Source: a virus (lineage: Duplodnaviria > Heunggongvirae > Uroviricota > Caudoviricetes). From it: a stretch of 59,758 nucleotides of DNA. Below are positions 7,103-37,145 of this stretch, piece by piece (positions within the stretch are counted from its first letter, which is position 1; every line of letters begins with the position of its first letter). The stretch spans positions 1-59,758 of IMG/VR virus record IMGVR_UViG_3300025310_000004, one strand, 5' to 3'. A program made the position numbers and the translations under genes. The notes under the pieces were generated by a model. That model was not told where the DNA came from, searched no databases, and saw nothing but the letters and a program-made list of their open reading frames with translations.

Positions 7103-7177
7103 TTATCCACAGCCTGTGGATAACACCTGGGTCAAACGGCCCACGAACAGGCGTTCTGTGGATAACCCTGTGGACAA
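7103..7177. promoter_or_regulatory. Cluster of four DnaA boxes
   Basis: TTATCCACA 7103, TGTGGATAA 7115 and 7157, TGTGGACAA 7169. Confidence 0.75.
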
Positions 7178-7207
7178 ACCCTCGACCTCTACCTGAGGTT
7201 GAGGGTC
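7177..7207. repeat. 31-bp palindromic element (AACCCTC family)
   Basis: AACCCTCGACCTC-TACCT-GAGGTTGAGGGTC. Confidence 0.75.
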
Positions 7208-7226
7208 GGACCTCACTCGCCCCAGC

Positions 7227-7248
7227 AGCATAGCACGCGGGTGTGACA
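7227..7248 (-). promoter_or_regulatory. Phage promoter pointing into the DnaA-box cluster
   Basis: TGTCACACC-N7-TATGCT on the minus strand. Confidence 0.6.
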
Positions 7249-7319
7249 TCGCTCCGGGCGATAGGTTGAGGGGGCAGGCGGCCAGTGACGCGACTACATG
7301 TGATAATAGGCTGCGGATA

Positions 7320-7363
7320 TGATCCAAACGGCCCATGTGGGTGTCACACCCGTCGTGTATGAT
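7320..7363 (+). promoter_or_regulatory. Composite phage promoter (upstream box plus TGTCACACC-N7-TATGAT)
   Basis: TGATCCAAACGGCCCATG followed by the box at 7342 and -10 at 7358. Confidence 0.8.
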
Positions 7364-7397
7364 GCTCTCAACAACCCCGACGAAAGGAGTCACCACC

Positions 7398-7856
7398 ATG
7401 ACGACCACCACCACTTCCCTACCGCTCCCCCGCCACCAGGACGCCACCTGCGGGCGCGGCATCAACCCCGTCGAGTCCGACGCGGCTCGCACGGCCATCG
7501 TGGAGTCCTACAAGGCTCTGCGCGTGCTGGACGAGGGGGGATTCCTCGACTTCATCGCGGAGATGGCCCACGACAGCAACGCTGCCGACCAGGCCCGTGA
7601 CGCGCTCGTCGCCATCGAGGACAACATGAGCCCGAACCTGCTGGTGACGGTGCTCCCCTCCTACTCCAAGGTGCGCTTCGCCACCGACCGATCCCGGCCG
7701 GGCGAGGTGTCCGAGGGCATCGTGCGTGACGGCGCATGGGGTCTGTACCCCGACCGCACCGGATCGACCGAGCGTCGAATCACGACGAACGGCTGGGAGT
7801 TCTTCGTGGACCGCGAGACGGTGTTCACCTTCTTCGAGGTGACCGAGCGCGGTTGA
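7398..7856 (+). CDS. Hypothetical protein
   Basis: CGACGAAAGGAG RBS. Confidence 0.75.
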   Translation: MTTTTTSLPLPRHQDATCGRGINPVESDAARTAIVESYKALRVLDEGGFLDFIAEMAHDSNAADQARDALVAIEDNMSPNLLVTVLPSYSKVRFATDRSRPGEVSEGIVRDGAWGLYPDRTGSTERRITTNGWEFFVDRETVFTFFEVTERG

Positions 7857-7928
7857 GCCAATCGGCCCATTGTGCGCCCCCTTCGGGGGGTGCATAATAG
7901 GGTCCTACCCCGACGAGAGGGGAACAAC

Positions 7929-8324
7929 ATGACGGACACCCGAAACACCACCTGCGAGGAGCGCATCGACGCCAACCTCGCCAGCCGCATCGAGGACATC
8001 GAGGCGATCTACGACGCTCTCAACAACGACGGCGGCGAGATCGACGGCGAGTTCTGCGACTACGAGGCCGCCTACGAACGACTCCAAGAGTTCCCGTTGG
8101 CCGTCGAGATCAAGTCCACGCTGGTCGTCCAGATCGGCACCGGAGGTCCCGGCGATCAGTTCGAGATCGAGGTCGAGCGCGGCGCCCACGGTGGGTGGGT
8201 GCTGGCCGACAATGAGGCCACCTACCGCTTCCTCGATTGGTTCGACGGCGCAACCCGCCGGACCGACAACGAGGCCGTGATGGCGATGCTCTCCAACTTC
8301 GCGGAGATCATGTACGAGGAGTAG
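7929..8324 (+). CDS. Acidic hypothetical protein
   Basis: GAGGGG RBS, QIGTGGPG motif. Confidence 0.75.
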   Translation: MTDTRNTTCEERIDANLASRIEDIEAIYDALNNDGGEIDGEFCDYEAAYERLQEFPLAVEIKSTLVVQIGTGGPGDQFEIEVERGAHGGWVLADNEATYRFLDWFDGATRRTDNEAVMAMLSNFAEIMYEE

Positions 8325-8606
8325 TCACTGAGCCGCGGCGATGCGTTGGCGGGCGTCTAGGAGCGTCTGCCACGCATCGTCGGGGTCGAGGTGGGGACCG
8401 GCCAGGTCCTCCCAGCGCCAGCCAAGCGCCAGCCCGAGCCGCTTCCACATGGCGGGGGCCGGGCGGCCTTCGCCGCGCTCCCACTGGCCGATGTTCTCCC
8501 AGGTGGTGCCGACGCGCTTGGCGAGCGTGCGGTGGGAGATGTCGCGGCACACTCGGACCACGGCCAGTGGTGTCACTAGACCTTCGGGAGTGCGTGGCAA
8601 CTCCAT
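8325..8606 (-). CDS. XRE-family HTH transcriptional regulator
   Basis: ISHRTLAKRVGTTWENIGQWERGEGRP, leaderless (TACACT-N6-ATG). Confidence 0.8.
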   Translation of the reverse strand: MELPRTPEGLVTPLAVVRVCRDISHRTLAKRVGTTWENIGQWERGEGRPAPAMWKRLGLALGWRWEDLAGPHLDPDDAWQTLLDARQRIAAAQ

Positions 8607-9260: not shown

Positions 9261-9616
9261 GCGGGCGCACTATCTACTCGTTCGTGCCCACCGGGCGGCC
9301 CAACATCGAGGTCACCGCCATCGACTACCACCGCAACGGTGTGTCGGGGCGAGGCTTCCACGTCGTGCTGTTCACCGAGGTCATCGAGGGCAAGCCCCGC
9401 ACCTTCCTGGGCATCGTGCCGGGTCGGCCCGAGCCGGGTGAGTGCTTCGTGCTCGACGCCGACATGGTGGGCGAGCACAACATCGCCTTCGGGGAGAACT
9501 CCTGGCGAGGCGACCACTACGAGGAGGCGCTGATCGAGGCCATCAAGGCCCACCAGCGCGCCGAGTGGGAGCGCATCATCGGCAAGCCCTACCCCGGCGA
9601 CGACATCGAGGTCTAG
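9257..9616 (+). CDS. Phage hypothetical protein
   Basis: ATGA overlap, YHRNGVSG motif. Confidence 0.7.
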   Translation: MSGRTIYSFVPTGRPNIEVTAIDYHRNGVSGRGFHVVLFTEVIEGKPRTFLGIVPGRPEPGECFVLDADMVGEHNIAFGENSWRGDHYEEALIEAIKAHQRAEWERIIGKPYPGDDIEV

Positions 9617-15523: not shown

Positions 15524-15545
15524 ATCATACACCGTAGGTGCGACA
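15524..15545 (-). promoter_or_regulatory. Phage promoter TGTCGCACC-N7-TATGAT
   Basis: Preceded by the GGGCCGAATGACCCAT box. Confidence 0.8.
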
Positions 15546-15555
15546 AACCAATGGG

Positions 15556-15810
15556 TCATTCGGCCCTTCGCTTGGGGGGCTTGATCGAGGAGGTGTTGAT
15601 GCGCTCGGGGTAGAAGGCTCGGGACTGCTCCCGTTGGTGCGAACCACCGAAGCACTCGATCCAGACATCACCCTCGGCGTTAGTCACCGTCTTGATGTAG
15701 CGATAGGTCTTGCCCTTCTCGCCATGGCAGCGGAAGGTCCATCCAACCTCCAATCGCTTGCCGTCATCGAAGGTGTGCTCGTAGGTCGCGGTCCATGTCT
15801 CGGATGTCAT
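15556..15810 (-). CDS. Hypothetical protein
   Basis: Promoter GTTCGCACC-N7-TAGACT at 15820-15841. Confidence 0.65.
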   Translation of the reverse strand: MTSETWTATYEHTFDDGKRLEVGWTFRCHGEKGKTYRYIKTVTNAEGDVWIECFGGSHQREQSRAFYPERINTSSIKPPKRRAE

Positions 15811-15909
15811 AGTGGCACCAGTCTATCACATTGGTGCGAACGGACTATAGACCGTGAGTACGACATCTGGCATGATGTCTCCACCAACCACCGACGAAAG
15901 GAGTCCCCC

Positions 15910-16281
15910 ATGGACCTTGGAGACAGCACCGCAGCAGACCGAGCCAGGCTCGATCAGGTCGCTCGGGAGCGCCTACTCGGAGACATCTTCTCCCAGGGCA
16001 CCCCGGCCGCGATCAACACGACCGACTGCCTGAGCGTGTCGCTCGACACCATCATCGAGTCCCTTCGTGAGAACGAGTGGGGCGACGTGGTGCGGATCGA
16101 GACGCCCCTCGGCGTCCACGGCGTCACCTACGGCACCGACGAGTGCCAGGAGGAGTACGCCACGGTCGGCATGGTGCTCGGCGGGTCCAAGCCCGGTGTC
16201 GATGTCTACGTCGAGATCGAGGACGGCACCTACGGGCAGATGTGCGGCTTCCGCCTCTACCGCGAGGACGTGATGGCGTGA
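15910..16281 (+). CDS. Hypothetical protein
   Basis: CGACGAAAGGAG RBS. Confidence 0.7.
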   Translation: MDLGDSTAADRARLDQVARERLLGDIFSQGTPAAINTTDCLSVSLDTIIESLRENEWGDVVRIETPLGVHGVTYGTDECQEEYATVGMVLGGSKPGVDVYVEIEDGTYGQMCGFRLYREDVMA

Positions 16282-16475
16282 GCGCCGTCGAGACGGAGTG
16301 GCGCGACTACATGGTCACCATGACCGTGCACGTCAACATCCCCATCCACGCAGCCAACCCCAACTTCACGGCCGACGACGCCAAGGAGGCTGCCATCGAC
16401 CATGTGGTGGGGGCGATCGAGTCCTACACCCACGGCGATGCCGAGGTGGCTTCCATCACGGCGGTGGAGGAGTGA
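16278..16475 (+). CDS. Hypothetical protein, paralogue of 16723..16899
   Basis: Shared IHAANP.FTA.DAK...VVGAIESYT.GDAEVA.ITAVEE. Confidence 0.7.
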   Translation: MSAVETEWRDYMVTMTVHVNIPIHAANPNFTADDAKEAAIDHVVGAIESYTHGDAEVASITAVEE

Positions 16476-16726
16476 TGATGCTCTCCATCGCCGTCACCCC
16501 CGACGATCTTCTCGCCTTCGGGTGGGATGACGACTCGGCCCAGCGCCCCGACGACTTCGTTCGGCCGCTGCTGTCGTGCGGTCACTACGACCGCCCGGTG
16601 TTCTTCGCCTCGTCGCAGTGGGACTTCCCCCACGAGGCCCACGTCTGCCCCGTCTGCGGGGAGACTCGTCAGTGGGACCTGCGGGTGCAGGCGGCCATCA
16701 TCGAGGGCTGGAAGGAGGAAGCATGA
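16475..16726 (+). CDS. Zn-ribbon hypothetical protein
   Basis: LSCGH...CPVCG. Confidence 0.65.
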   Translation: MMLSIAVTPDDLLAFGWDDDSAQRPDDFVRPLLSCGHYDRPVFFASSQWDFPHEAHVCPVCGETRQWDLRVQAAIIEGWKEEA

Positions 16727-16899
16727 TCGAGGAACCAACCACCATCCGCGAGGGGCTGGTCAAGCGCATCCACGCAGCGAACCCGACCTTCACGGCCGAG
16801 GACGCCAAGGCCCATGCCGTCGAAGCGGTGGTAGGGGCCATCGAGTCCTACACCAACGGCGATGCCGAGGTTGCTGCGATCACGGCGGTGGAAGAATGA
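16723..16899 (+). CDS. Chimeric hypothetical protein
   Basis: N-terminus like 17299, C-terminus like 16278. Confidence 0.65.
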   Translation: MIEEPTTIREGLVKRIHAANPTFTAEDAKAHAVEAVVGAIESYTNGDAEVAAITAVEE

Positions 16900-16949
16900 T
16901 CGAAGAACCCACCGTCCTGCGGGCGGGACTCATTAAGCGCATTGCGTAG
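16896..16949 (+). pseudogene. 17-aa stub duplicating the N-terminus of 17299..17577
   Basis: MIEEPTVLRAGLIKRIA versus MIEQATTLRAGLLKRVH. Confidence 0.55.
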
Positions 16950-16969
16950 CACTGTGATACGCTGAGCAC

Positions 16970-17302
16970 ATGGAAGAGGTTGCTTGGCTCGCAGGGCTGT
17001 TTGAGGGCGAGGGGTACATCTTCTACGCCAGCCGCAGTTGGCGCATGGGAATCACGATGACGGACGAGGACGTGATCCGTGAGGCCCATCGCGTCGCCGT
17101 CGTGGGGAAGGTCTATGGCCCCTACGAGGGGAAGGGGAATCGCAAGCCATCGTGGAGATGGCAGGTCAGCAACCGCCGAGAGGTCGAACAGGTCGCCATG
17201 ATGATTCGGCCATACCTGTTTGGCCGAAGGAAGCAGCAAGTGGATGAGTGTCTCGGGAACCCCGTACGTCATCCAACCCGACTGAAAGGAGATCAACCAT
17301 GA
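16970..17302 (+). mobile_element. Free-standing single-motif LAGLIDADG homing endonuclease
   Basis: AWLAGLFEGEGYI...ITMTDEDVI...G.VY...K..WRWQVS...PYL..RK, leaderless. Confidence 0.85.
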
Positions 17303-17577
17303 TCGAACAAGCGACAACGCTCCGTGCGGGGCTTCTGAAACGAGTGCACGTCGATCAGCACCGGATCAAGTCCAACGCCAAGACGGGAGCCGATGAGCCG
17401 GTGCTCACCGTCCAGGCGGCTGGCGGACCCTACAAGGCCCACGAGGTCGAGGTCAACGGTCCGTCGAAGATCGTCTACGATGGGCGCACCCTCTCCTGCG
17501 GAGCCAAGTGCTGGATCGAGACGACCGCTGAGGTCACCACCGTGATCCGAGAGGGGGCGATCGAGGAGGTCGCATGA
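17299..17577 (+). CDS. Conserved phage hypothetical protein
   Basis: HVDQH.IK.N...PVLTV...GPS.IVY...LSCGAKCWIET. Confidence 0.75.
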   Translation: MIEQATTLRAGLLKRVHVDQHRIKSNAKTGADEPVLTVQAAGGPYKAHEVEVNGPSKIVYDGRTLSCGAKCWIETTAEVTTVIREGAIEEVA

Positions 17578-17777
17578 GGTCTGTCCGGTGCGGGTGCTGT
17601 GGGCGAGAGTCGTTCCGCTCACTCACCTGCACCGGAACGCCGTGCATCTACGCCTGCGATCGCTGCGACTACGTTCAGCACTGGCCCACCTACCGCCCAG
17701 AGCCGTTCGATTGGAGCCACGTCGAGCAGCAGCCGTCGCGCTGGGAGCGGATCAAGCAGCGATGGCGACGCCGTTGA
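17574..17777 (+). CDS. Cys-rich hypothetical protein
   Basis: ATGA overlap. Confidence 0.55.
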   Translation: MRSVRCGCCGRESFRSLTCTGTPCIYACDRCDYVQHWPTYRPEPFDWSHVEQQPSRWERIKQRWRRR

Positions 17778-17964: not shown

Positions 17965-18013
17965 GGAAGTCTCCTTTCGTCGTAAGGGGACATGATACAC
18001 GACGACTGCGACA

Positions 18014-25985: not shown

Positions 25986-26007
25986 TGTCGCACCTATGCC
26001 ATACTCT
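25986..26007 (+). promoter_or_regulatory. Phage promoter TGTCGCACC-N7-TACTCT
   Basis: Preceded by GAATGATCCGAATGGCCCAT. Confidence 0.75.
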
Positions 26008-26049
26008 CCTTGTCGGCACGGGGCCGACGACGACGAAAGGAGCACCACC

Positions 26050-26292: not shown

Positions 26293-26297
26293 CCGCC

Positions 26298-26495
26298 ATG
26301 GCAGCGATGACCTACAACGAGTGGTACGGCGAGGTGACCGTGGCACTCAACCGGGCACTCAAGCGGTACAACGTCTCCCCCTACGACTACCAGGAGTTGG
26401 AGCACGAGTTCGGGGAAGGGAACTACGACGCCATCCTCGCCGCGGTGAAGCAGCGGAGCACCGACGGCTACTACCGCCCCGCACTCCGCTGGTAG
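26298..26495 (+). CDS. Hypothetical protein
   Basis: Second gene of the cassette. Confidence 0.65.
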   Translation: MAAMTYNEWYGEVTVALNRALKRYNVSPYDYQELEHEFGEGNYDAILAAVKQRSTDGYYRPALRW

Positions 26496-26678
26496 CCGAC
26501 GCCCCGCCCCGTCCCCCCTTCCGGGGCGGGGCTTCGGCCCCCACGACTGGCCGGGTGCGAGGTTCTCGGTAGGCATCGTTCGACAGTAGGGCCGAATGAC
26601 CTATGGACCCCGTACTATCACCCTGCCATACTGGTACTTGCAAGGCACCACGGGGGTGCCAGCAGAAAGGGGATCACC

Positions 26679-26996
26679 ATGATCTATGCACTCTGGTTCG
26701 GCGGGGTGGGCTACGCCCCCGGCGACATGGTGGAGGACCTTGAGTCCTTCCCGTCCCTCGCCGCCGCCAAGGCCGCCCTGTCCGAGCGCTACGCCCGCGG
26801 CTACTCCTTCCGGCAGGACTTCGAGTTCGTCAACCGGGAGCCCGAGTCGGTCTACTGCCCCTGCGTGGAGGACGACTCCCGTATGTGGGTATGGCTCGCC
26901 GCCGACGAGGTGGACGGGGTGACCTACGTCCCCGAGTACCCGGACCGGATCATCGAGTTCGGCCCACGGGGCGGCGTGAACGTCACCGCCGCCTGA
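26679..26996 (+). CDS. Hypothetical protein
   Basis: GAAAGGGG RBS. Confidence 0.7.
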   Translation: MIYALWFGGVGYAPGDMVEDLESFPSLAAAKAALSERYARGYSFRQDFEFVNREPESVYCPCVEDDSRMWVWLAADEVDGVTYVPEYPDRIIEFGPRGGVNVTAA

Positions 26997-27079
26997 CAAC
27001 GTTCCGGGGGTGCCCTCGCGAGGGGGCACCCCTAAGAACGCCTCGCGCGTGCGCTATCGCGTGAGATGTAGGCCCCACA

Positions 27080-27108
27080 CGGCCAGTAGCCCCTACCACC
27101 ACTGGCCG
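27080..27108. repeat. CGGCCAGT-N13-ACTGGCCG dyad
   Basis: Spacer one base longer than usual. Confidence 0.65.
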
Positions 27109-27121
27109 CCACCCCCCCCTC

Positions 27122-27152
27122 AACCCTCAACCTCTACTTGAGGTCGAGGGTT
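27122..27152. repeat. 31-bp palindrome copy
   Basis: AACCCTCAACCTC-TACTT-GAGGTCGAGGGTT. Confidence 0.8.
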
Positions 27153-27180
27153 CGCCCGCGTCACTGGCCGCCCCCGGCCC

Positions 27181-27201
27181 TTGTCCACAGGCTGTGGACA
27201 A
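27181..27201. promoter_or_regulatory. Inverted pair of DnaA boxes
   Basis: TTGTCCACA-GGC-TGTGGACAA. Confidence 0.65.
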
Positions 27202-27223
27202 ACCTGGGGATGACGCACCCCCA

Positions 27224-27273
27224 CCGAATGATCCGAATGACCTATGGACCATGGCGCACCCCACCCCTACTAT
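27224..27273 (+). promoter_or_regulatory. Composite phage promoter of the ardC-like gene
   Basis: CCGAATGATCCGAATGACCTATGG, TGGCGCACC-N7-TACTAT. Confidence 0.75.
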
Positions 27274-27320
27274 GTACCCCATGAGGTCGCCACGGGGGCG
27301 GCCCTAGAAAGGGGAACACC

Positions 27321-28184
27321 ATGAGCACCGATGAGGCACGGCAGGCACTCGACACGCTGCACGCGAGCATCGCGAAGATCACCGACTCCGACGCCTGGCG
27401 CGAGCACCTGGCGGTGCAGGCCCGGTTCCACGACTACAGCCCGCTCAACATCATGTGGATGTGGTGCCAGTGGGAGGCCCGCCGCGCCGAGAACCCCGAC
27501 CTGCCGGAGTTCTCCCAGCCCGCAGCGTTCTCCGCCTGGAAGGACCTGGGTCGCCACGTCCGCAAGGGCGAGAAGGCCCTGAGCGTTCTCGCTCCCATCA
27601 TCGTCACCGACCGCGAGAACCTGGGTCCCGACGGCAAGCCGCGGACCAAGTGCGTCGGGTTCCGCGTGAAGCGGCGCACGTTCGATGTGGCGCAGACTGA
27701 GGGCGACCCCCTCCCCGAGAACCCCGCCATGCCGTCGCTGCTGACGGGCGAGGGCGACCCCGCCACCTGGGAGGCCCTGGTGGCGCACGCCGCGACCCTG
27801 GGGTGCACGGTGCAGGTCACCGACGCCTGCCAGCCCGCGAACGGGGACTACAGCCGGGCGACGGGGCTGATCCGCGTGGCCGAGAGCCTGGACCACGCGC
27901 AGCAGGTCAAGACCCTGCTGCACGAGGTGGCGCACGCCACGCTGCACAGTGGCGACACCGACCTGAGCCGGGCCGAGAAAGAGGTCGAGGCCGAGAGCAC
28001 CGCTTTCGTGGTCGCCGCCCTGCTGGGGTTCGACACCGCGGCCTACAGCGTCGGCTACGTCGCCACCTGGGCGAGCCGGGACGACCATGGCGAGTGCCTG
28101 CGGCGCACGACTGAGCGAGTCGTGAAGGCCGCCCGCACCATCGCCGCAGCCCTGGCGCAGCACCCCGCCACGCTGGCAGCCTGA
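27321..28184 (+). CDS. ardC: ArdC-like antirestriction ssDNA-binding protein with a HEXXH domain
   Basis: RFHDYSPLN, W..LGR.VRKGEKA, FDV.QT.G, LLHEVAH, E.EAES.AFVV, YS.GYV.TW. Confidence 0.85.
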   Translation: MSTDEARQALDTLHASIAKITDSDAWREHLAVQARFHDYSPLNIMWMWCQWEARRAENPDLPEFSQPAAFSAWKDLGRHVRKGEKALSVLAPIIVTDRENLGPDGKPRTKCVGFRVKRRTFDVAQTEGDPLPENPAMPSLLTGEGDPATWEALVAHAATLGCTVQVTDACQPANGDYSRATGLIRVAESLDHAQQVKTLLHEVAHATLHSGDTDLSRAEKEVEAESTAFVVAALLGFDTAAYSVGYVATWASRDDHGECLRRTTERVVKAARTIAAALAQHPATLAA

Positions 28185-28225
28185 GGGCGAGGGGCGGTCC
28201 GAACCTGGGCCGCCCCTCAACCCTC

Positions 28226-28256
28226 AACCCTCAACCTCAAGTAGAGGTCGAGGGTT
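28226..28256. repeat. 31-bp palindrome copy
   Basis: AACCCTCAACCTC-AAGTA-GAGGTCGAGGGTT. Confidence 0.8.
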
Positions 28257-28465
28257 TGGGGCCTGGGTGGGCCAGTCGAGCCCTGCGCCGGGCCAGTCAG
28301 ACCTGGGGGATGGTGAACCCGGCGGTCGCCCCCTGGTCGAGCGGGACGCCCCCAGGGGATCGCCTCGGAGAACGGGCCATACGACCCACTTGACGGGTAG
28401 GTTGTATCATAGGCTACGATGGCGACACGCCAACAGGGGCGAGCAACCCGAAGGGGGTGACCAAC

Positions 28466-28660
28466 ATGAGCAAGCGCAAGCGCAAGCCACAGAAGGCAGG
28501 CACCGTGGCCGAGACGGTCACCTTCATGCGCCGCCAGAACCGCGAGGCCATCGTGGCCGACATGCGGGAGGGGCGGGTGCAGAAGGCTCACACCTTCACC
28601 GATCGCAAGCGCGAGGCACGCCGCACGGCCTGCCGGGGGAAGTTCTCCCCGGCAGACTGA
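28466..28660 (+). CDS. Small basic protein
   Basis: GAAGGGGG RBS, K/R-rich. Confidence 0.65.
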   Translation: MSKRKRKPQKAGTVAETVTFMRRQNREAIVADMREGRVQKAHTFTDRKREARRTACRGKFSPAD

Positions 28661-28940
28661 GCGCAAGACCGAGGGCGGTCCACGTTCCGCCCAGGGGGAA
28701 CCCTCCTGATGGCCGCACCGCTTCGGCGGGGGGCAAGTGTAGGGAGGGAGGTCGAGCAACCCCGAAGCCCCCGGAGGGTCGCGAACCTCCGGGGGTGAAC
28801 GTGGCCGACGTGACTGGCCGCCCGCCCCGGCGCACGGTCCGAAGATGGTCCGAACGGCCTATAGTACGGGATGGCGTAGACGTGCCATACTGTCACCACG
28901 GCAACGCACGGGGCGGGGCCACCGACGAAAGGGGAACTAC

Positions 28941-29228
28941 ATGAGCATGATCGTCACCGGGGGAATCATCGACACCTCCCGGCTCCGGGCACTCGCTGCC
29001 GCATGGCACTCGGGCATGTCCTCGCCGCTCTACGCGCTGGCGTCCTCCGGGGCCATCGTGGACGGCATCGAACGCGAGGTGGAGGAAGCCATCGCGGACG
29101 CCGAGCGGTTCGGCACCACCGACCCGGACTACGCCGCCGACGTGGTGCCCCTGCGCCACCTGCTGACCTACGTCCGACACCACGGCCCGCGCGGCCCGGT
29201 GGAGGGGTGGAGCGACATCCGCTTCTGA
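28941..29228 (+). CDS. Actinophage hypothetical protein
   Basis: WHSGMSSPLYALASSG motif, strong RBS. Confidence 0.7.
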   Translation: MSMIVTGGIIDTSRLRALAAAWHSGMSSPLYALASSGAIVDGIEREVEEAIADAERFGTTDPDYAADVVPLRHLLTYVRHHGPRGPVEGWSDIRF

Positions 29229-29425
29229 GAACGTGGGCGGGAGCAATACCGGGGGTCGCTCCCTCGGGGCGAGGGTCGCCACCTCGCCGGGGCCGTGAGC
29301 GCCCCGCAACCTCCCGCCCTCGCTCGCCGCCTCGCCGCCCTGAGAACGCCTCGGGCGCGTCTGACGCGGGGCACCCTGAGAACGCCTCGGGCGCGGCTGC
29401 CGCGCATATGGCGGGACGCCCCCTG

Positions 29426-29485
29426 CGGCCAGTGGCCGCCCTACTACTGGCCGCACCCCGCCCCCGGAGGCCGAACGGGTGTTCG
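29426..29485. promoter_or_regulatory. 8-12-8 dyad followed by an SOS box
   Basis: Dyad 29426-29453, CGAAC-GGGT-GTTCG 29472-29485. Confidence 0.75.
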
Positions 29486-29506
29486 TGAGTCTGTCGGCCC
29501 CCCACC

Positions 29507-29554
29507 GAATGATCCATCTGGCCTATGGTCAGTGTCGCACCCGTCCTGTATCGT
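29507..29554 (+). promoter_or_regulatory. Composite phage promoter
   Basis: Upstream box plus TGTCGCACC-N7-TATCGT. Confidence 0.75.
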
Positions 29555-29603
29555 TCTCCCCATCGGTGCCACGGGGGCACCGCCGACGAAAGGGGGCCAC
29601 CCT

Positions 29604-29867
29604 ATGGCCGAATCCGAGAGCCGATCCGAGCGGGCGATGTTCGCCGCCGTCTGGGTACTGATCGCGTTCGCCCTGTTCTACTTCGGGGCGCACGTCGTGA
29701 TCGCCGTGCACCGCGGGACCTTCCCGCCCGAGCCGCGCCCGGTGCCCGAGTGCACCGTCTGGGAGGATGGCTCCGCCCGGTGCACCCTGCCGCCCTCGCA
29801 ATGGGTCCCGGCAGGCACCACCCTGAGCGGGTGCAGCGACGACCCTGCCGCCCTCTGCCACGACTGA
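29604..29867 (+). CDS. Small membrane protein
   Basis: One N-terminal TM helix, strong RBS. Confidence 0.7.
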   Translation: MAESESRSERAMFAAVWVLIAFALFYFGAHVVIAVHRGTFPPEPRPVPECTVWEDGSARCTLPPSQWVPAGTTLSGCSDDPAALCHD

Positions 29868-29943
29868 GGCCCGCCCGCCCTCCCCACCAGGGGGGCGGGT
29901 GCGCCCCTGCACTGGCCGCTCCCTCGCCTCGCCGGACGAGGAA

Positions 29944-29989
29944 GGGCCGAATGGCCTATGGAGTTCCTGTCACACCTGACCGATACTAT
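29944..29989 (+). promoter_or_regulatory. Composite phage promoter
   Basis: GGGCCGAATGGCCTATGG, TGTCACACC-N7-TACTAT. Confidence 0.8.
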
Positions 29990-30039
29990 ACCTATGAGCG
30001 GGCCGCACGGGGCGGCCCACCGGCACCACCTGAGAGGGG

Positions 30040-30228
30040 GTGAGCATGGTCAGCACCACCGCAGTCGTCACGCTGTCGGACGGTACCCAGGTCGGGATCA
30101 CCGTCACCGATGGCGAGGTGACCTGGGTGGCGGAGCGCCCGACGCCGGGCGCATCCTGGGGACCGCCTCTGCGGCGTCAGGATGAGGAGTGGCGTCACGA
30201 GCGCGACACCTTCGCCATCCGCGACTGA
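30040..30228 (+). CDS. Hypothetical protein
   Basis: GAGGGGG RBS. Confidence 0.65.
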   Translation: MSMVSTTAVVTLSDGTQVGITVTDGEVTWVAERPTPGASWGPPLRRQDEEWRHERDTFAIRD

Positions 30229-30435
30229 ATCGGATTCGGCCCCCGCCGGGGGGGTGGCAACAGAAACCCCGGCCCCCTCAGGGGGGATCATCTCCTCAGC
30301 GTTGCGCGACGCGATCCGGCACCGCGCACCCTGAATCACACAGTGAGGCGGTTCGACTCCGCCGCCCGAGGGGGACCCGGTTGGTCACTGTGCAGGGGCC
30401 GGGGTAGGGAGGTGGTCCCCCCTGAGGGGTGCGGT

Positions 30436-30463
30436 CGGCCAGTGCGGCCCTGGGAACTGGCCG
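30436..30463. repeat. CGGCCAGT-N12-ACTGGCCG dyad
   Basis: Exact match. Confidence 0.75.
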
Positions 30464-30704
30464 CCCTGGGCCTGGGGTGGACGGGGGAGAGGTCGCCCCC
30501 TCCCCCGTCGCCCTCTGTTGCGGCGGTGCCGCTAGTGGGTAGCACCCTCTCTCCGGGCGGGGCCAGCCGCCCACGTCCTGGCCGACGTGAGTGCTCGTCT
30601 GTTGCACCGAGGCTCCTACTTGAGAGTGATACCGCCCACTAGGGGCACCCCCTGAGGGGTGGGGGAGTTCTGTTGCCGCGCCTCCCCCGTGCGCCGAGTC
30701 TGAG

Positions 30705-30872
30705 TCAGTCCTGAGCCTGAGCGGCTACGGCGGCCCGCCGCGCCTTCGCCGCGGCCCGCTGCGCCCCCCGACGCTCCTGCCGACGCTTGTCGGCCGCAGC
30801 GTTCCGCTCGTCCCGCTTGTCGCGGAAGTCGGTGCGGGTGGCTCGCTCCATGTTGAGCGATCCCTGTGCCAT
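30705..30872 (-). CDS. Small basic protein (55 aa, not in the ORF track)
   Basis: MAQGSLNMERATRTDFRDKRDER..., GAAGGGGG RBS. Confidence 0.6.
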   Translation of the reverse strand: MAQGSLNMERATRTDFRDKRDERNAAADKRRQERRGAQRAAAKARRAAVAAQAQD

Positions 30873-30996
30873 CTGTTCACCCCCTTCGGGTGTCCCTTCC
30901 CCGGCGGCCCCGTGCCGTCGTGGTATGTATGTATTATCGGCCCTGCCACCGAGGAAGTGAATAGGTCATTCGGATCATATCTCGGGGGGCCGACAC

Positions 30997-31082
30997 CGAA
31001 CGGGTGTTCGAGGGCGTGCCCCCGGCCAGTTCGCCCCCCAGCACTGGCCGACCTGGGCCTCTGCGGGCCGAACACGCGTTCG
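30997..31082. promoter_or_regulatory. SOS box, 8-12-8 dyad and second SOS box between divergent promoters
   Basis: CGAAC-N4-GTTCG at 30997 and 31069, dyad at 31023-31050. Confidence 0.75.
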
Positions 31083-31094
31083 CCCGGCAAGGTA

Positions 31095-31137
31095 GGGCCG
31101 AATGGCCTATGGTACTGTCGTACCCGTTTGATACTAT
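31095..31137 (+). promoter_or_regulatory. Composite phage promoter
   Basis: Upstream box plus TGTCGTACC-N7-TACTAT. Confidence 0.7.
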
Positions 31138-31183
31138 GTCCCTGTCGGGCCGCACGGGGCGGCCGACAGAAGGGAGACTCACC

Positions 31184-31369
31184 ATGGCAACGCTCACCGC
31201 AGACGAGAAGCGCGAGGCCATCGCCCACGCTCGGGGCTTCGAGATCGAGGACCTTGAGGAAGCGATGATGGACGGAGGGATCGAGACGGCAGACGGCTGC
31301 TGGGTCGAGCCGGACGGGCGGTGCGCCCACGGGTACCCCTCCCCCCTCCGCATCCTCGGCTACATCTGA
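31184..31369 (+). CDS. Conserved small phage protein
   Basis: CWVEPDGRCAHGYPSPL..LG.I. Confidence 0.7.
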   Translation: MATLTADEKREAIAHARGFEIEDLEEAMMDGGIETADGCWVEPDGRCAHGYPSPLRILGYI

Positions 31370-31428
31370 GCCGCACGGGGTCGGCCCTACGGGGTCGGCC
31401 CCATCGGCGCGCCCGCCGACGCCCTGGG

Positions 31429-31490
31429 CGGCCAATTCCCCCGCCACCACTGGCCGCAGCCCGGCCCTGCGGCGGCCGAACGCCTGTTCG
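31429..31490. promoter_or_regulatory. Imperfect 8-12-8 dyad and an SOS box
   Basis: CGGCCAAT-N12-ACTGGCCG, CGAAC-GCCT-GTTCG at 31477. Confidence 0.7.
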
Positions 31491-31714
31491 ATCGTCGGCC
31501 CCGTCGGATATGATCCGAATGGCCTACTTGACGTACCGGCCCCGTACTATAGGATTGGCTCATACCCGCTGGGAAGCGGCACCGGCCCTAGATGCAGCGT
31601 GGCGGTTTGGCACCGCAGACCAAAGGCCAGCAATCGCAACATGCGACCATGAGGCGGCCCCACGGGGGGGCGGCCCTGAGTGCACCGAAAGGGGGTGAAC
31701 ATAAGGGGATCAAC

Positions 31715-31918
31715 ATGGACTTCACGGTCTGGGCACTCAAGGGCGACGGCACCGCCGAGGTGGTGGCCGAAGGGGTGGACGGCGAGCGCGCCGAGTCCAT
31801 CGCTCGACACCCGTCGCTGAGCGGTTGTCGGGTGGCGGTGCTGCCGACCTGGGCGGCGGGGCCGGTCCCCACGTCCCCGGCGGTGCTGGCCGCCATGGCG
31901 GCCGAGCGGGGCAACTGA
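31715..31918 (+). CDS. Hypothetical protein
   Basis: AAGGGG RBS. Confidence 0.6.
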   Translation: MDFTVWALKGDGTAEVVAEGVDGERAESIARHPSLSGCRVAVLPTWAAGPVPTSPAVLAAMAAERGN

Positions 31919-31977
31919 GCCCCGCCGAGGTCCCGCCCCTCACGGGGGGCGGGGCTTCGCCGCGCCCGCACTGGCCG

Positions 31978-32073
31978 AACCCTCAACCTCAACCTGAGGT
32001 TGAGACTCGCAACCCTCAACCTCAACTAGACGTTGAGGGTTGGCCAGTTACCCCTGGACCGAACGGGTGTTCG
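31978..32073. repeat. Two palindrome copies and an SOS box
   Basis: AACCCTCAACCTC units at 31978 and about 32012, SOS box 32060-32073. Confidence 0.75.
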
Positions 32074-32084
32074 GCCCGAAAGTT

Positions 32085-32130
32085 GGGCCGAATGACCTAT
32101 TCACTTCCTGTCACGGGTGACCGATACTAT
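32085..32130 (+). promoter_or_regulatory. Composite phage promoter
   Basis: Upstream box plus TGTCACGGG-N7-TACTAT. Confidence 0.7.
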
Positions 32131-32174
32131 ACATGTGAGGCCGCCACGGGGGTGGCCCACCGAAAGGGGAAGTC

Positions 32175-32387
32175 ATGCACGGGAGCATCACCACCGAGCC
32201 GATGGGCGAGGCGCACAAGGTCGAGAAGTTCGACCACCGCCCCGACCGGACCGAGCGGGAGCGGGCGAGCAAGGCCCGCCGACAGGGCCGACGGGCCGAC
32301 CGCCGGACCGCCGCCCGCCGCCGCTACGAGGATGAGCAGCGGGGGGCCGACCTCATGGCTCGCCGCCACGGGGTCACCGCCGACTGA
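32175..32387 (+). CDS. Small Arg-rich protein
   Basis: GAAAGGGG RBS. Confidence 0.65.
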   Translation: MHGSITTEPMGEAHKVEKFDHRPDRTERERASKARRQGRRADRRTAARRRYEDEQRGADLMARRHGVTAD

Positions 32388-32485
32388 GGCCCGCCACCGG
32401 GGGCACCCCACGGGGTGCCCCTTCGGCGCGCCCGCCCACGGCACTGGCCGCCCGCCCCGCCCGCCCGAGCGGCCCGCCGAACTTA

Positions 32486-32528
32486 GGGCCGAATGGCCTA
32501 TGTACCTGTCGCACCGTTCCTGTATGAT
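32486..32528 (+). promoter_or_regulatory. Composite phage promoter
   Basis: Upstream box plus TGTCGCACC-N7-TATGAT. Confidence 0.8.
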
Positions 32529-32575
32529 CTACTCAAGAGGTCGCCACGGGGGCGGCCGCCACGAAAGGGGTCACC

Positions 32576-32752
32576 ATGACTCGCAAGGACTTCACCGCCA
32601 TCGCCCAGATCATCGCCGAGGTGCCCGAGCAGGGCGCAGGGCCGGAGTGGCTGGCGAGCGCCTTCGCCGCCTTCCTCGCCGGGACGAACCCCCGGTTCGA
32701 CCGGGACCGCTTCATGCGGGCCTGTGGCGTCGGCCACCTCGCGGACAACTGA
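32576..32752 (+). CDS. Conserved small phage protein (58 aa, not in the ORF track)
   Basis: MTRKDF.AIA...NPRFDRDRF..ACG. Confidence 0.75.
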   Translation: MTRKDFTAIAQIIAEVPEQGAGPEWLASAFAAFLAGTNPRFDRDRFMRACGVGHLADN

Positions 32753-32817
32753 GCCGCCCGCCACGGGGCCGCCCTTCGGGGCGGCCCTTCGGCGCGCCCC
32801 GCCCCCGGCACTGGCCG

Positions 32818-32848
32818 AACCCTCACCCTCCACCCGAGGTTGAGGGTT
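32818..32848. repeat. 31-bp palindrome copy
   Basis: AACCCTCACCCTC-CACCC-GAGGTTGAGGGTT. Confidence 0.7.
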
Positions 32849-32982
32849 GCGTTCTCACTGGCCGCCCGCCCGACCTTGGGGCAGGTAGGGCCGAATGACC
32901 TATGGACCCCCTACTATCACTCGTGCCATGATGAGGGCACGAGGTCGCCACGGGGGCGGCCCGCAACCCGAAGGGGACCACC

Positions 32983-33216
32983 ATGACCACCTACGCCTAC
33001 GACGTGGCCGAGATTTCGGCCGCCTGCCGCCTCTGCGGCGACGTGCACTTCGCCATCGTGGCCGAGGCCGATTTCGTCCGGTTCTACTGCGAGGGCGAAC
33101 TCGTGCAGGTCGCCTTCCCCGAGGCCACGCCCGAGGTGCGCGAGATCGCCATGGCCTACCGGCCGAACGGCTACTACGTCTGCCCCGCCTGCTGGGAGGC
33201 CATGGGCGACGAGTGA
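32983..33216 (+). CDS. Small Zn-finger protein
   Basis: CRLC...CPACW, strong RBS. Confidence 0.7.
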   Translation: MTTYAYDVAEISAACRLCGDVHFAIVAEADFVRFYCEGELVQVAFPEATPEVREIAMAYRPNGYYVCPACWEAMGDE

Positions 33217-33459
33217 CCGCCCGCCACGGGGGCACCCCACGGGGTGCCCCTTCGGCGCGCCTACCACCCTCAACCCTCAACCCTCACCCTCAACCTCAGG
33301 TCGAGGGTCGGAGGCCCCCGGCGGCCAGTCCATAGGGTCTAGAGGCATGGCACCGGCCAGTCGAACTAGGCCCCGGCCAGTCGAATGCCCCTCTCCTCTC
33401 GCAACGCGTGACGCGTGTAGGGGCAGGGGGTCGAACCCCCCGCCCCCCTCGCGCTCGCC

Positions 33460-33678
33460 TCAGTCGTAGAGGCTCACGCTCAGTTCCCACGCCCGGAGCC
33501 ACGACTCCATCGTGGGGCACAGGTCCTTCGCCTCCCACCACAGGACCTCCATGGCGGCGGTGTCCTCGGCGTCATCGCCGTAGGTGTCGAGCACCCAGGA
33601 CGACGCGAGAGCGTGGAGGGCGAGCAGGCTCGCCGCCCCGAGCAGGTTGTCCAGGGTGGTGGGCTGGGTGGTGTCCAT
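33460..33678 (-). CDS. Hypothetical protein
   Basis: GAAAGGGG RBS, promoter at 33726-33747. Confidence 0.7.
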   Translation of the reverse strand: MDTTQPTTLDNLLGAASLLALHALASSWVLDTYGDDAEDTAAMEVLWWEAKDLCPTMESWLRAWELSVSLYD

Positions 33679-33725
33679 CGTGGTCCCCTTTCGGTCGAGC
33701 ACCCCCGTGGTGCTCGCTTACAGAC

Positions 33726-33747
33726 ATAGTATCGGCAGGGTGTGACA
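33726..33747 (-). promoter_or_regulatory. Phage promoter TGTCACACC-N7-TACTAT
   Basis: Recurrent motif. Confidence 0.8.
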
Positions 33748-33787
33748 GGAACTTGAGCCATCCGCCGAAGATGTGCCGAACGGCCTA

Positions 33788-33981
33788 CGAACATCCGTTC
33801 GCCCCCTCCGACCGAACGGGTGTTCGGTCGCCGCCCGACGGTACTGGCCGCAACCCTCAACCTGGGGTCGAGGGTTGGTCGAACCCTCACCCTCAACTAG
33901 AGGTTGAGAGTTTGCGGCGAACTGGCCGCCGCCCCCCTCCGGTGGCGCAGACCGAACGGCTGTTCGCCGAACGGCTGTTCG
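33788..33981. promoter_or_regulatory. Four SOS boxes around palindrome copies
   Basis: CGAAC-N4-GTTCG at 33788, 33813, 33953, 33968; AACCCTC palindromes at 33851-33912. Confidence 0.8.
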
Positions 33982-34021
33982 TGGTCCGAACGGATCATTC
34001 GCACCGGATCGCTCAAGTTCC

Positions 34022-34043
34022 TGTCACACCGGGCCGATACTAT
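34022..34043 (+). promoter_or_regulatory. Phage promoter TGTCACACC-N7-TACTAT
   Basis: Recurrent motif. Confidence 0.8.
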
Positions 34044-34086
34044 GACTGTGAGGCCGCCACGGGGGTGGCCGACGAAGGGAGACACC

Positions 34087-34272
34087 ATGGACCCGAACGC
34101 TGCACTCCGCAACATGCGCGAGGCCATCTCGCGCACCTGGGAGGCCGAGGGCGAGGCCGACCGCCTCGCTGCGGCCGAGGACCTCGCCGTTGCGGCCGAG
34201 GCCCTGGACTCGTGGCTCAGCACCGGGGGCTTCCTCCCCTCCGGCTGGGCTGCGGCCGAACCGGCCGCCTGA
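34087..34272 (+). CDS. Conserved actinophage small protein
   Basis: MDPNAAL...ALDSWLS.GGFLP..W. Confidence 0.8.
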   Translation: MDPNAALRNMREAISRTWEAEGEADRLAAAEDLAVAAEALDSWLSTGGFLPSGWAAAEPAA

Positions 34273-34337
34273 GTCCAACCCTCAACCGGGGCGCCCCCCT
34301 CAACCGGGGGCGCTTCGGCGCGCCCGCCCTAAGAACG

Positions 34338-34368
34338 AACCCTCGACCTCAACTTGAGGTTGAGGGTT
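34338..34368. repeat. 31-bp palindrome copy
   Basis: AACCCTCGACCTC-AACTT-GAGGTTGAGGGTT. Confidence 0.8.
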
Positions 34369-34535
34369 GGGCCGCGGCTAGTACCTCCTTGGCGCTGGGC
34401 GCTGAGAACGACTGCGGCCCGGCATACGGCCCCCCGCCCCCCCAGGAAGGACGCACGGGGGGCATACCCGACTGGCCGAGGCCCGGCCTCTGCTTAGGCG
34501 GCCCGGCCCGGCTCCGCCGCCGCCCGCCTCCCGAC

Positions 34536-34598
34536 CGAACACGCGTTCGGGCCGAACAAGCGTTCGGGCCAAACACGCGTTCGGCGAACGGCCGTTCG
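34536..34598. promoter_or_regulatory. Tandem array of four SOS boxes
   Basis: Boxes at 34536, 34553, 34570 (CAAAC variant), 34585. Confidence 0.8.
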
Positions 34599-34881
34599 TG
34601 GGCCGATCGGCCCACCACGCCCGACGGGGCGCGGCGAGCGCCACCACGGGCGCCGACGACGACCACACCCGACGGGCGCGCCGACGCCGACGGCGTAGCG
34701 GGCGCAACCACTACCACGACCACGGCGCCGCGGTCAACCACCACGCCGACGACGACCACGCCGACGACGCCGACGACGCCGGGCACGGGAGGGTACTTGA
34801 CCACGCCGACGGGATCGCCTAAGGTAACGACGACCAACCACCACGGCGCCACCACGGCGCCGCCCGACCACGGGAGACACC

Positions 34882-35319
34882 ATGACCACCACGACCGACA
34901 CCATGACCACCACGACGGGCGGGCGCATCGTGCGCGCCTACGCGGTGAGCGTGAGCATGGCAGGGTACCTGCCGAACGACGGCGCCGTGGCGCTCTACGC
35001 CGATGCCTACGACGCCGTGCGCGACGCCGTGGACACGTTGCGCCGTGACGCCGACGACGTTTGGTCACTCCACGACGACGACGCCGACATGGCGCGCGAT
35101 GCCGCGGCACCCTACGACGACGCGGCAAGCGCGCTCGCCGCGTCGGCCGACGCCGTGGCCGCGCACCTACTCACGGCGCCGATGGACTACGGGCACGACG
35201 TCATCGTGCGATCGGTCTACGGTCCAACCATGGTCTACCGCGTCGCGGTCGTCGCGGCGTGCTGCCCGTCGGTCGTGGACGGGCGCGGCCACGACGGCGC
35301 GCCGTGGTCGTGCGATTGA
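34882..35319 (+). CDS. Low-complexity hypothetical protein
   Basis: TTGACC-N17-TAAGGT promoter, GGGAG RBS; no E, K, Q or F. Confidence 0.65.
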   Translation: MTTTTDTMTTTTGGRIVRAYAVSVSMAGYLPNDGAVALYADAYDAVRDAVDTLRRDADDVWSLHDDDADMARDAAAPYDDAASALAASADAVAAHLLTAPMDYGHDVIVRSVYGPTMVYRVAVVAACCPSVVDGRGHDGAPWSCD

Positions 35320-35493
35320 CCACGACGACCACCACGACGACCACGGGCGCCCGCTCACGACGGGCGCCCGTGGCGCGTCACGACGCCGACGACGACGGGC
35401 ACGGGAGGGTACTTGACCACGCCGACGGGATCGCCTAAGGTAACGACGACCAACCACCACGGCGCCGACGGCGCCACGACCACGGGAGACACC

Positions 35494-35880
35494 ATGACCA
35501 CTCTCACGCCCGCCACCACGCCCGACGCGCCGACCACGCCCGACACCTACGCACGGCGCCTAGTGGCCGCGGGATTCACGCTCCACGACGCCCGACGCAT
35601 CGCACGCGACGCCGACGCCCGCGGCGCGTTCACGCCGACCACGGCGCCCGCCTACGACGACGCCGACACCGCGGCGGGCGCGGGATGGTCGGTCGTGGCG
35701 CTCCACGCCGACGGGCGCGGAGAGATTCTGACCACCACGCCGACGCACGGCGCCGCGGCCACGCTCGCCGCGGGCTACGACCGCGCCGCGACCATCGGCG
35801 CCGCCACGGGCGCCCGTCGGCGCTCGCGCATCGTGGTCGTGCCCGCCTACGACGCCGACGCCGTGGCGGGCGCGCGATGA
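35494..35880 (+). CDS. Low-complexity hypothetical protein
   Basis: Duplicated promoter/RBS block upstream. Confidence 0.6.
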   Translation: MTTLTPATTPDAPTTPDTYARRLVAAGFTLHDARRIARDADARGAFTPTTAPAYDDADTAAGAGWSVVALHADGRGEILTTTPTHGAAATLAAGYDRAATIGAATGARRRSRIVVVPAYDADAVAGAR

Positions 35881-35960
35881 CCACCGCGCCGACGGGCGGG
35901 CGCACCACGGCGCCCGCCCACCACGACCGACCGACCACCACGACCACCACGGGAGACACC

Positions 35961-36539
35961 ATGACCACGCTCACGCTCACGCCCGCCACGACCGACGCCG
36001 TGCGATTCACCACGGCGCCCGCTACGCCGTTCACGCCGACGCCCGTGGTGCTCACCGCGGGAACGGTCGTCGCGATTCGTTGGGCAGGGTACAACGGCGT
36101 GCGCGGCGCCACGGCGTTGCACAAGACCGAAACGGTCGTGAGCGTGGCCACGACCGACGGCGTGCGCGGCGTGCTCACGCTCACGGGCGGCGCTTACAAG
36201 AACGGCGCCACCACGCGCACGCTCAACACTCACCGCGCCGATGGGCGCCCGTCGTCGCAGATTCTCGGCGCCTACCCTGTCGGCGCCGTGGTGGCGGCGC
36301 TCGCCGCGGTCATGGGCGCCACGCCCGCCACGACCGACGCCGACGACCACGCCGACGCCGACGGCGCCACGACCGACGACCACGACCACGACGGCGACGG
36401 CGTGCCCGTGGTGGGCGGGCGCAGCGTGGCGGCGCGGCGAGGGTACGCGCGGGCTAAGCGGGCGGCGCGTCGCACGCTACGACGCGTGGAGCGCCGCGAC
36501 GCGATCCGCGCAGCGTGGCACGACCACGCCGACGCGTGA
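35961..36539 (+). CDS. Low-complexity hypothetical protein
   Basis: GGGAG RBS, basic C-terminus. Confidence 0.6.
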   Translation: MTTLTLTPATTDAVRFTTAPATPFTPTPVVLTAGTVVAIRWAGYNGVRGATALHKTETVVSVATTDGVRGVLTLTGGAYKNGATTRTLNTHRADGRPSSQILGAYPVGAVVAALAAVMGATPATTDADDHADADGATTDDHDHDGDGVPVVGGRSVAARRGYARAKRAARRTLRRVERRDAIRAAWHDHADA

Positions 36540-37040
36540 CCGCGGGCGCCGACGGGCGCCGACCACGACCACGGGCGCCCACCACGGGCGCCCGTGGCGC
36601 GTCCACGCCGACGCCCGCTCACGGGCACGCGTGGCACTCACGGGCACCACGACGCCCGACGGCGCGCCACGGGCGGCGCTCACGGGCGCCTAGGCGGCGC
36701 TCACGGGCGCCTAGGCGGCGCCCGTGCCCGTGCCCGTTGTGCCCGACCACGGGAGACACCACGACGAACGACGCGACGACGAACGACGCGACGAAACGAC
36801 GCGACGAAACGACGACCGACGACGACGCCCGACCACGGGCGCCACGCCGACGCCCGCTCACGGGCACGCGTGGCACTCACGGGCACCACGACGCCCGACG
36901 GCGACGACCGACGACGACGACCGGCGACGACGACGAACGACGCGACGAAACGACGCGACGAAACGACGCGACGAAACGACGCGACGACCGACGACCGACG
37001 ACCGACGACGACGCCCGACCACGGGCGCCACGCTCACGCC
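36540..37040. repeat. Non-coding T-depleted micro-repeat block
   Basis: 57-bp duplication (36604 and 36844), ACGACGCGACGAA tandems, T-free runs of over 100 nt. Confidence 0.8.
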
Positions 37041-37145
37041 CGAACGCGTGTTCGGCCGAACGCGTGTTCGTGGGCCGAACGACCTACGAACGTCTGTTCG
37101 CCCGAACGCGTGTTCGGCGCGTCGCGAGTACCGAACGCGTGTTCG
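37041..37145. promoter_or_regulatory. Array of five SOS boxes
   Basis: CGAAC-N4-GTTCG at 37041, 37057, 37087, 37103, 37132. Confidence 0.85.

Follow-up and report, generated by a model that had tools for sequence, protein, structure and literature searches.

Phages co-opt the host regulators LexA, Spo0A and CtrA (PMC9437464). Host LexA has been described as co-opted by GIL01, coliphage 186 and the CTX phage (PMC4551915; Fornelos 2016, as cited in PMC9437464), all of them temperate and with a switch promoter covered by one box or a few, and sites for Spo0A and CtrA are carried by the virulent phage phi29 and by phages of Alphaproteobacteria, respectively (PMC9437464). In coliphage T5, the first-injected DNA ends in the injection stop signal, a complicated untranslated repeat region that has been compared across 25 T5-like phages (Davison, bioRxiv 10.1101/866236); it carries eight DnaA boxes, paired 3 base pairs (bp) apart, and a role as replication origin has been argued against (10.1101/866236). 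The present analysis concerns the first 59,758 nucleotides (nt) of the 171,330-nt IMG/VR virus record IMGVR_UViG_3300025310_000004 (about 65% G+C), referred to below as the window, which carries LexA-type and DnaA-type sites in the spacers of a block of small genes and two arrays of LexA-type boxes around a three-gene island. The reading put forward, in which we place middling confidence, is that co-opted host factors act on this DNA in cis, through early promoters gated by the host SOS state and through a boundary hub resembling the T5 injection stop.

The T5 genome (NC_005859) holds perfect LexA boxes of the form CTGT-N8-ACAG at 6213 and 9411, each adjoining DnaA boxes paired 3 bp apart (6182-6228 and 9409-9518). 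The two LexA/DnaA modules are mirrored around the + strand operon T5.011-T5.017, the right-hand LexA box lying within the annotated injection stop signal; no mention of these two boxes was found in the papers searched. The window resembles this arrangement in several respects. A block of small early genes closes in a long untranslated repeat-rich region (here 36540-37848), DnaA boxes are paired 3 bp apart in both phages, and a small + strand operon stands between mirror-oriented modules that each hold a perfect LexA box of the host type, although both modules are LexA-type in this phage. It differs in box type, the LexA box being of the Gram-positive type and the DnaA box actinobacterial, in having arrays of four to six boxes against one LexA box per arm in T5, and in the extra LexA-type boxes at nine early-promoter positions. 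T5 also has a terminal repeat, two-step entry and A1/A2-type proteins, whereas the likeness here is one of sequence layout.

The phage itself has no nucleotide match among GenBank phages over the window, and its helicase, capsid and DUF932 proteins share 33-50% identity with proteins of Gordonia, Arthrobacter and Mycobacterium phages; with actinophage proteins as the nearest and no nucleotide match, it would represent a new 171-kilobase (kb) lineage infecting Actinobacteria. Its first 38 kb or so are best explained as an early arm of the host-takeover type, made of about 45 small and mostly single-gene cassettes. An earlier note on this DNA had treated positions 7103-37145 as a non-coding operator-decoy region, yet the stretch bears about 60 small genes. 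By our own gene calls, those between 22 and 34 kb are mostly single small genes set apart by spacers of 180-600 nt, while elsewhere genes are tightly packed, and the coding fraction is 0.40-0.44 at 29.4-37.85 kb against 0.86-0.93 across most of the remaining genome. From the stop codon onwards, a spacer holds a GC-rich terminator hairpin, optional site families (in the order CCTRAGAACG, ACTGGCCG sites or dyad, 31-bp palindrome, LexA-type box), the module CCGAATGACCTATGG, a TGTCRCACC element, a -10 element, a leader hairpin and a ribosome site. The features on which the argument turns are as follows, with the strand given where one applies.

7103 to 7208: composite cluster of a DnaA-type palindrome, a LexA-type box, tandem DnaA-type boxes and a 31-bp palindrome
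15531 to 34043: early promoter cassettes, with CCGAATGACCTATGG (about -47 to -33), TGTCRCACC, N7, a TAnnnT -10, a 5' leader hairpin and the ribosome site GAAAGGGG
27181 to 27201: DnaA-type 9-3-9 palindrome TTGTCCACA-ggc-TGTGGACAA, upstream of the ArdC-like gene 27321-28184
29472 to 33981: nine single or paired LexA-type boxes, at 29472, 30997, 31069, 31477, 32060, 33788, 33813, 33953 and 33968
34536 to 34598: left array, three perfect LexA-type boxes and one with a single mismatch, spaced 15-17 nt
34599 to 36539, + strand: island, 74% G+C with a C+A-rich + strand; open reading frames (ORFs) 34882-35319, 35494-35880 and 35961-36539
36540 to 37040: repeat-rich non-coding stretch, with a 62-nt direct repeat (36603-36664 = 36842-36903) and 13-nt tandem arrays at 36761-36827 and 36915-36994
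37041 to 37145: right array, five perfect LexA-type boxes and one decayed
37146 to 37848: non-coding boundary, with three conserved GATAATAG elements at 37190, 37237 and 37388

The LexA motif of S. venezuelae is tCGAAC-N4-GNNCGa (PMC9380542). The core of the box found here, CGAAC-N4-GTTCG, equals this motif, with flanks that are mostly C/G and not T/A. Seventeen exact copies are present against 0.10 expected, every one intergenic and with perfect arms; they are confined to 29472-37145, the rest of the 171,330 nt having none, and one-mismatch copies stand at 7144 and 34570. The phage encodes neither a LexA-type DNA-binding domain nor an S24 peptidase. Nine of the boxes stand just upstream of the CCGAATGACCTATGG module, at promoters on either strand, and are centred about 68-100 nt before starts that were inferred from -10 elements and not mapped, that is, outside the zone from -35 to +1. 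Many of the sites had been described earlier as lying far from any -10, whereas these nine hold a consistent promoter-upstream position; the remaining eight boxes make up the arrays at 34536-34598 and 37041-37145.

DnaA-type boxes (TTRTCCACA) number six against 0.32 expected, all intergenic and in groups of four and two, and they pair 3 bp apart, either inverted (7103-7123, 27181-27201) or in tandem (7157-7177). In the group of four, the inverted pair forms the 9-3-9 palindrome TTATCCACA-gcc-TGTGGATAA at 7103-7123, and the tandem pair TGTGGATAA-ccc-TGTGGACAA at 7157-7177 is fused on one side to a LexA-type box with a single mismatch (7144-7157) and abutted on the other by a 31-bp palindrome at 7178-7208. 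The junction of GTTC with TGTGGATAA, as at 7144-7165, recurs in the unrelated viral contigs L134, L129 and L077. Relatives of the phage were found among metagenomic contigs via homologues of the 282-amino-acid protein at 24113-24961, and the DnaA-type palindrome accompanies the ArdC-like gene there too, upstream in L053 (3458) and just downstream in L055 (13667); L194 holds three more copies of it. By exact consensus match, the LexA-type and DnaA-type families appear to be genuine host-factor sites.

At the inner end of the arm, the left and right arrays are mutually inverted, with 18 nt of the left array 100% complementary to 37100-37117, and bracket a 2.5-kb island of three small + strand ORFs. 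Both arrays had earlier been thought to have no adjacent promoter to act on. The left one, however, lies about 200 nt upstream of a TTGACC-N17-TAAGGT promoter, part of an 87-nt repeat whose two copies in the island (promoters at 34797-34825 and 35413-35441) hold the only clear promoters of that type seen, and the right one ends about 45 nt before a conserved GATAAT promoter-like element, its last box (37132-37145) being about 64 nt upstream of that element. Directly after the right array the G+C content falls from about 80% to 43-49%, and transcription diverges at this boundary, with + strand genes to the left and - strand genes to the right. The boundary stretch 37146-37848 may hold promoters or a small RNA. 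A scan of 33.2-38.5 kb for strict sigma-70 and terminator consensus gave no match, Rfam returned no family in the window, boundary stretch included, and a metagenome scan with the conserved boundary string yielded one unrelated chance match only. Within these 700 nt the short motifs TTCCATTCG and GGGCCTAAGGGT are duplicated.

Pfam assigns no family to the three island ORFs. Homologues of ORF3 occur in five metagenomic contigs and show a conserved core and a basic C-terminal helix, without a recognisable family, and the fold model of ORF3 was too poor for structure search (predicted local distance difference test score 49.7). The three ORFs share a repeated ribosome-site cassette, ACCACGGGAGACACCATGACC, of which a fourth copy at 36746 lacks an ATG. 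The possibility that the island is a transposon with multi-site ends was set aside, as no transposase family was found.

The position of the right array is kept in close relatives, although its content is not. L195 has five tandem TGTGGACAA boxes at this position, followed by one LexA-type box whose left flank equals that of the 37132 box here, and L190 has six tandem DnaA boxes and a decayed LexA-type box; in both, the DnaA boxes run in the same direction at 11-12 nt spacing. The three GATAATAG elements of the boundary are retained in this phage and in L195, the short L190 contig covering the first two only. With five to six tandem DnaA boxes standing where this phage has four more LexA-type boxes, the type of array has been exchanged between close relatives and its position conserved. 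In L137 (G001; IMGVR_UViG_3300020233_000057), a distant relative of 113 kb, three tandem LexA-type boxes lie in a divergent non-coding region (66120-66169) and are followed by strongly G+T-rich repeats that resemble the skewed island of the window.

Under the reading of host factors acting in cis, the LexA-type boxes 64-100 nt upstream would tie the last eight or so early promoters to the SOS state of the host, LexA holding these promoters down and LexA cleavage releasing them. The two mirror-oriented arrays around the three-gene island would form a boundary hub at the inner end of the arm, on which host DnaA and LexA would load as the DNA comes in; the hub could then control the border by pausing the entry of DNA, ending early transcription or starting replication. 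Any titration of LexA and DnaA would be a by-product. This resembles the use of host SOS boxes in the promoter regions of GIL01, 186 and CTX, likewise without a phage LexA, but differs in that 17 boxes are present, most of them upstream of core promoters or in arrays, and in that no integrase or resolvase family was found in the phage. It is also akin to phi29 and the CtrA phages, where many sites for a host master regulator are spread across lytic phage promoters and read the state of the host; those phages, however, use other regulators and have no tandem arrays, mirrored boundary module or DnaA-box pairing.

Several points weigh against this reading. The boxes lie upstream of the core promoter and not over it as in classical SOS operators, so that simple repression is not evident and their position would suit an activator equally well. 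L055 has no LexA-type boxes at the equivalent promoters, and promoter gating is thus not a need of the whole lineage. No sequence homology to T5 was found, nor, given the lack of any GenBank phage nucleotide match, relatedness to Tequintavirus. LexA and DnaA are the presumed binders from their consensus sites.

Of the alternatives, it is possible, though on balance unlikely, that phage-encoded proteins bind the LexA-like and DnaA-like sites, whose host likeness would then be coincidence or mimicry. Small helix-turn-helix proteins encoded at 8325-8576 (- strand), at 95256-95417 (+ strand) and near 78.3 kb, or one of the island ORFs, would be candidates, and the phage has many further ORFs without annotated function; the palindromic 9-3-9 arrangement would suit a dimer, and the other three site families are clearly phage-specific. 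However, both site types match the host consensus exactly, and the tandem same-direction DnaA boxes of L190 and L195 are better suited to DnaA as a monomer than to a dimer. A survey of other viruses speaks against phage-encoded binders as well. Two LexA-type boxes 1-4 nt apart occur in more than 119 other IMG/VR contigs, whereas two control palindromes of identical base composition gave 13 and 0. Among the matches listed, 119 loci (L058-L176) make up 74 sequence clusters of 35-69% G+C, of which 35 have three or more boxes within 250 nt, and no protein family is common to the neighbourhoods, the largest covering 11 of the 119 loci; the same 14-nt palindrome is thus arrayed in unrelated clusters without a shared neighbouring protein, which favours a conserved host binder. 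DnaA boxes are enriched 12-fold within 300 nt of the listed LexA-type arrays and absent (zero) near control arrays. Non-coding arrays of three to seven LexA-type palindromes, often joined to DnaA-box arrays, were seen among the listed unrelated contigs, for example in L080 (3230-3480), L134 (4940-5120), L129, L086, L077, L149, L107 and L061, and some array neighbours encode WhiB, Ku, large terminase or SNF2 helicase. BLAST searches of the arrays of other phages against GenBank phages gave nothing useful.

Quite unlikely, in our estimation, is a hub at 36.5-37.85 kb that serves as an iteron-type replication origin, with the 13-nt repeats as iterons, an initiator encoded in the island, DnaA boxes as helpers, an AT-richer unwinding stretch and primer promoters, and with LexA-type boxes gating its firing. 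The 13-nt tandem repeats do adjoin ORF3, and L190-L192 carry similar tandem repeats with a GTTTCG core after ORF3; the tandem DnaA boxes of relatives, the drop in G+C content right after the array and the divergence of transcription would all agree with an origin. On the other hand, no initiator fold or family was recognised, GC skew has no origin signal, the replication genes are at least 14 kb away and an origin role has been argued against for the matching T5 region, as cited above.

The earlier note had seen the arrays as a decoy, or sponge, that sequesters host LexA and DnaA in trans and so induces SOS without damage and blocks initiation of host replication, an effect that would strengthen as copies of the phage DNA rise. 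Titration of DnaA by box clusters is established for bacterial loci such as E. coli datA and the DnaA-box clusters of B. subtilis, where a trans effect has been shown. As in those loci, consensus DnaA-box clusters lie here away from an obvious origin; unlike them, they are on phage DNA and paired with LexA-type boxes, the trans effect being a feature of the host loci. Parts of the decoy idea have held up, namely the exact host-type sites with perfect arms in all boxes, the lack of a phage LexA, arrays with more sites than one promoter needs and the interchange of LexA-type and DnaA-type arrays at one position among relatives, to which the co-occurrence of LexA-type and DnaA sites in many unrelated viral contigs may be added. 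It fares worse with the three families that belong to the phage lineage, the promoter-linked boxes and the gene-bearing stretch. There are only 17 LexA-type and six DnaA-type sites per genome, and L051 and L055 have no LexA-type boxes in the readable parts of their early regions, L051 lacking DnaA-type boxes as well. Because T5 has a module of this kind with no more than two LexA boxes, a number insufficient for a sponge, because half of the LexA-type boxes here occupy fixed positions upstream of promoters and because L051 and L055 do without such boxes in those readable parts, a sponge is not needed for anything tested, and we judge it improbable. Searches of the literature turned up no account of phage-borne LexA decoys or of LexA-plus-DnaA arrays.

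The five site families that the earlier note had reported in the spacers are all real, with matching counts and far above chance. As it had remarked for 37.8-59.7 kb, none occurs there past 37.85 kb; in the remaining 133 kb beyond that point all five are absent apart from one + strand CCTRAGAACG. Two families indeed match host LexA and DnaA sites, but the claim of sites for several host regulators does not extend to the other three, which are elements of the phage lineage common to relatives and are distributed as follows.

5529 to 34337, + strand: CCTRAGAACG elements, which often include the stop codon and are followed by a GC-rich palindrome
7178 to 34369: ten 31-bp palindromes AACCCTCAACCTC-N5-GAGGTTGAGGGTT, starting at 7178, 24986, 27123, 28227, 31979, 32012, 32819, 33280, 33883 and 34339
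19466 to 34478: ACTGGCCG half-sites and eight CGGCCAGT-N12(13)-ACTGGCCG dyads, the latter starting at 19466, 22605, 23447, 25037, 27080, 29426, 30436 and 31023

The half-sites amount to 46 copies against 3.8 expected, eight of them inside gene calls, and half-sites and dyads usually lie between the terminator of one gene and the next promoter. The dyads and the 31-bp palindromes are all intergenic (chance expectations were computed for the LexA-type, DnaA-type, half-site and CCTRAGAACG motifs). In the 31-bp palindrome, arm mismatches are uncompensated and the right arm is the better kept, which argues for a sequence-specific site rather than a pure RNA hairpin, and the latter was rejected. CCTRAGAACG occurs 11 times in the window, where 0.17 copies would be expected; these and the one further copy, 12 of 12 in the genome, are on the + strand, with three inside gene calls and the 12th at 100-140 kb. 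This strand specificity makes a symmetric operator unlikely and suggests an RNA-level or direction-dependent role. At 22518-22590 the element is found within a tandem 38-nt repeat. Relatives L053-L057 (about 50-89% protein identity) share the ACTGGCCG half-sites, the upstream promoter motif and the promoter; the dyads are common to L053, L054, L056 and L057 and the 31-bp palindrome to L053, L054 and L055. With the same half-sites, dyads and palindromes in relatives, these are conserved cis elements of the phage group without a link to a host regulator. Searches of IMG/VR with the exact promoter-upstream motif and the exact dyad returned single chance matches only.

The remaining features concern the genome as a whole. 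Most of the small early-arm proteins have no Pfam family. Among the exceptions are a nucleotidyltransferase, a DUF3846 protein and the ArdC-like protein, exact peptides of which retrieved no close relatives. IMG/VR classes the record as linear, without end repeats. From 171159 to its end lie a promoter and a ribosome site together with the opening codons of a gene, with no matching continuation at 1-373, so that the record ends are probably assembly breaks or real ends and not a circular junction.

The general promoter of the phage, TGTCRC-N10-TA-N3-T, adds a further likeness to a host system. PafBC-dependent mycobacterial promoters have the form tGTCgg(N10)tA(N3)T, with a -26 element and no -35 element (PMC8635444). 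The phage promoter has 37 matches in the window against 0.92 expected and 69 in the genome, 66 of these intergenic, with window examples at 7342, 23016, 32507 and 47032 (TGTCRCACC-N7-TAnnnT). It has the same geometry and the same GTC triplet, and likewise no -35 element, but continues with RCACC where the mycobacterial motif has gg, and it drives genes genome-wide and not early genes only. Neither a sigma region 2 nor a WYL protein was found to be encoded by the phage.

In its broadest form, mirrored or tandem LexA-box arrays joined to DnaA boxes would be a general and undescribed module of phage DNA, arising by convergence in T5-like coliphages, in this lineage and in dozens of viral lineages, that would load two host master regulators and could thereby gate entry and the early-to-later switch, or drain both from the host, and that would here be coupled to PafBC-mimicking promoters. 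We consider this extension doubtful; if it is true, however, the whole programme of the phage would be wired to the DNA-damage and replication sensors of the host. To our knowledge, how T5 halts the entry of its DNA once the first 8% of the genome is inside has been an open question for decades, with DnaA boxes as the sole proposed handle. The same logic is seen in an unrelated actinophage, whose early arm closes with a small operon set between mirrored host-factor sites. The array swap in relatives and the recurring LexA-plus-DnaA composites point to a common function, the docking of host factors on incoming phage DNA, for which natural array variants of LexA-type, DnaA-type and mixed composition are available. 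Should host PafBC read the general promoters, both arms of the DNA-damage response of Actinobacteria would connect to the phage, which raises the possibility of a large lytic phage that reads both of them.

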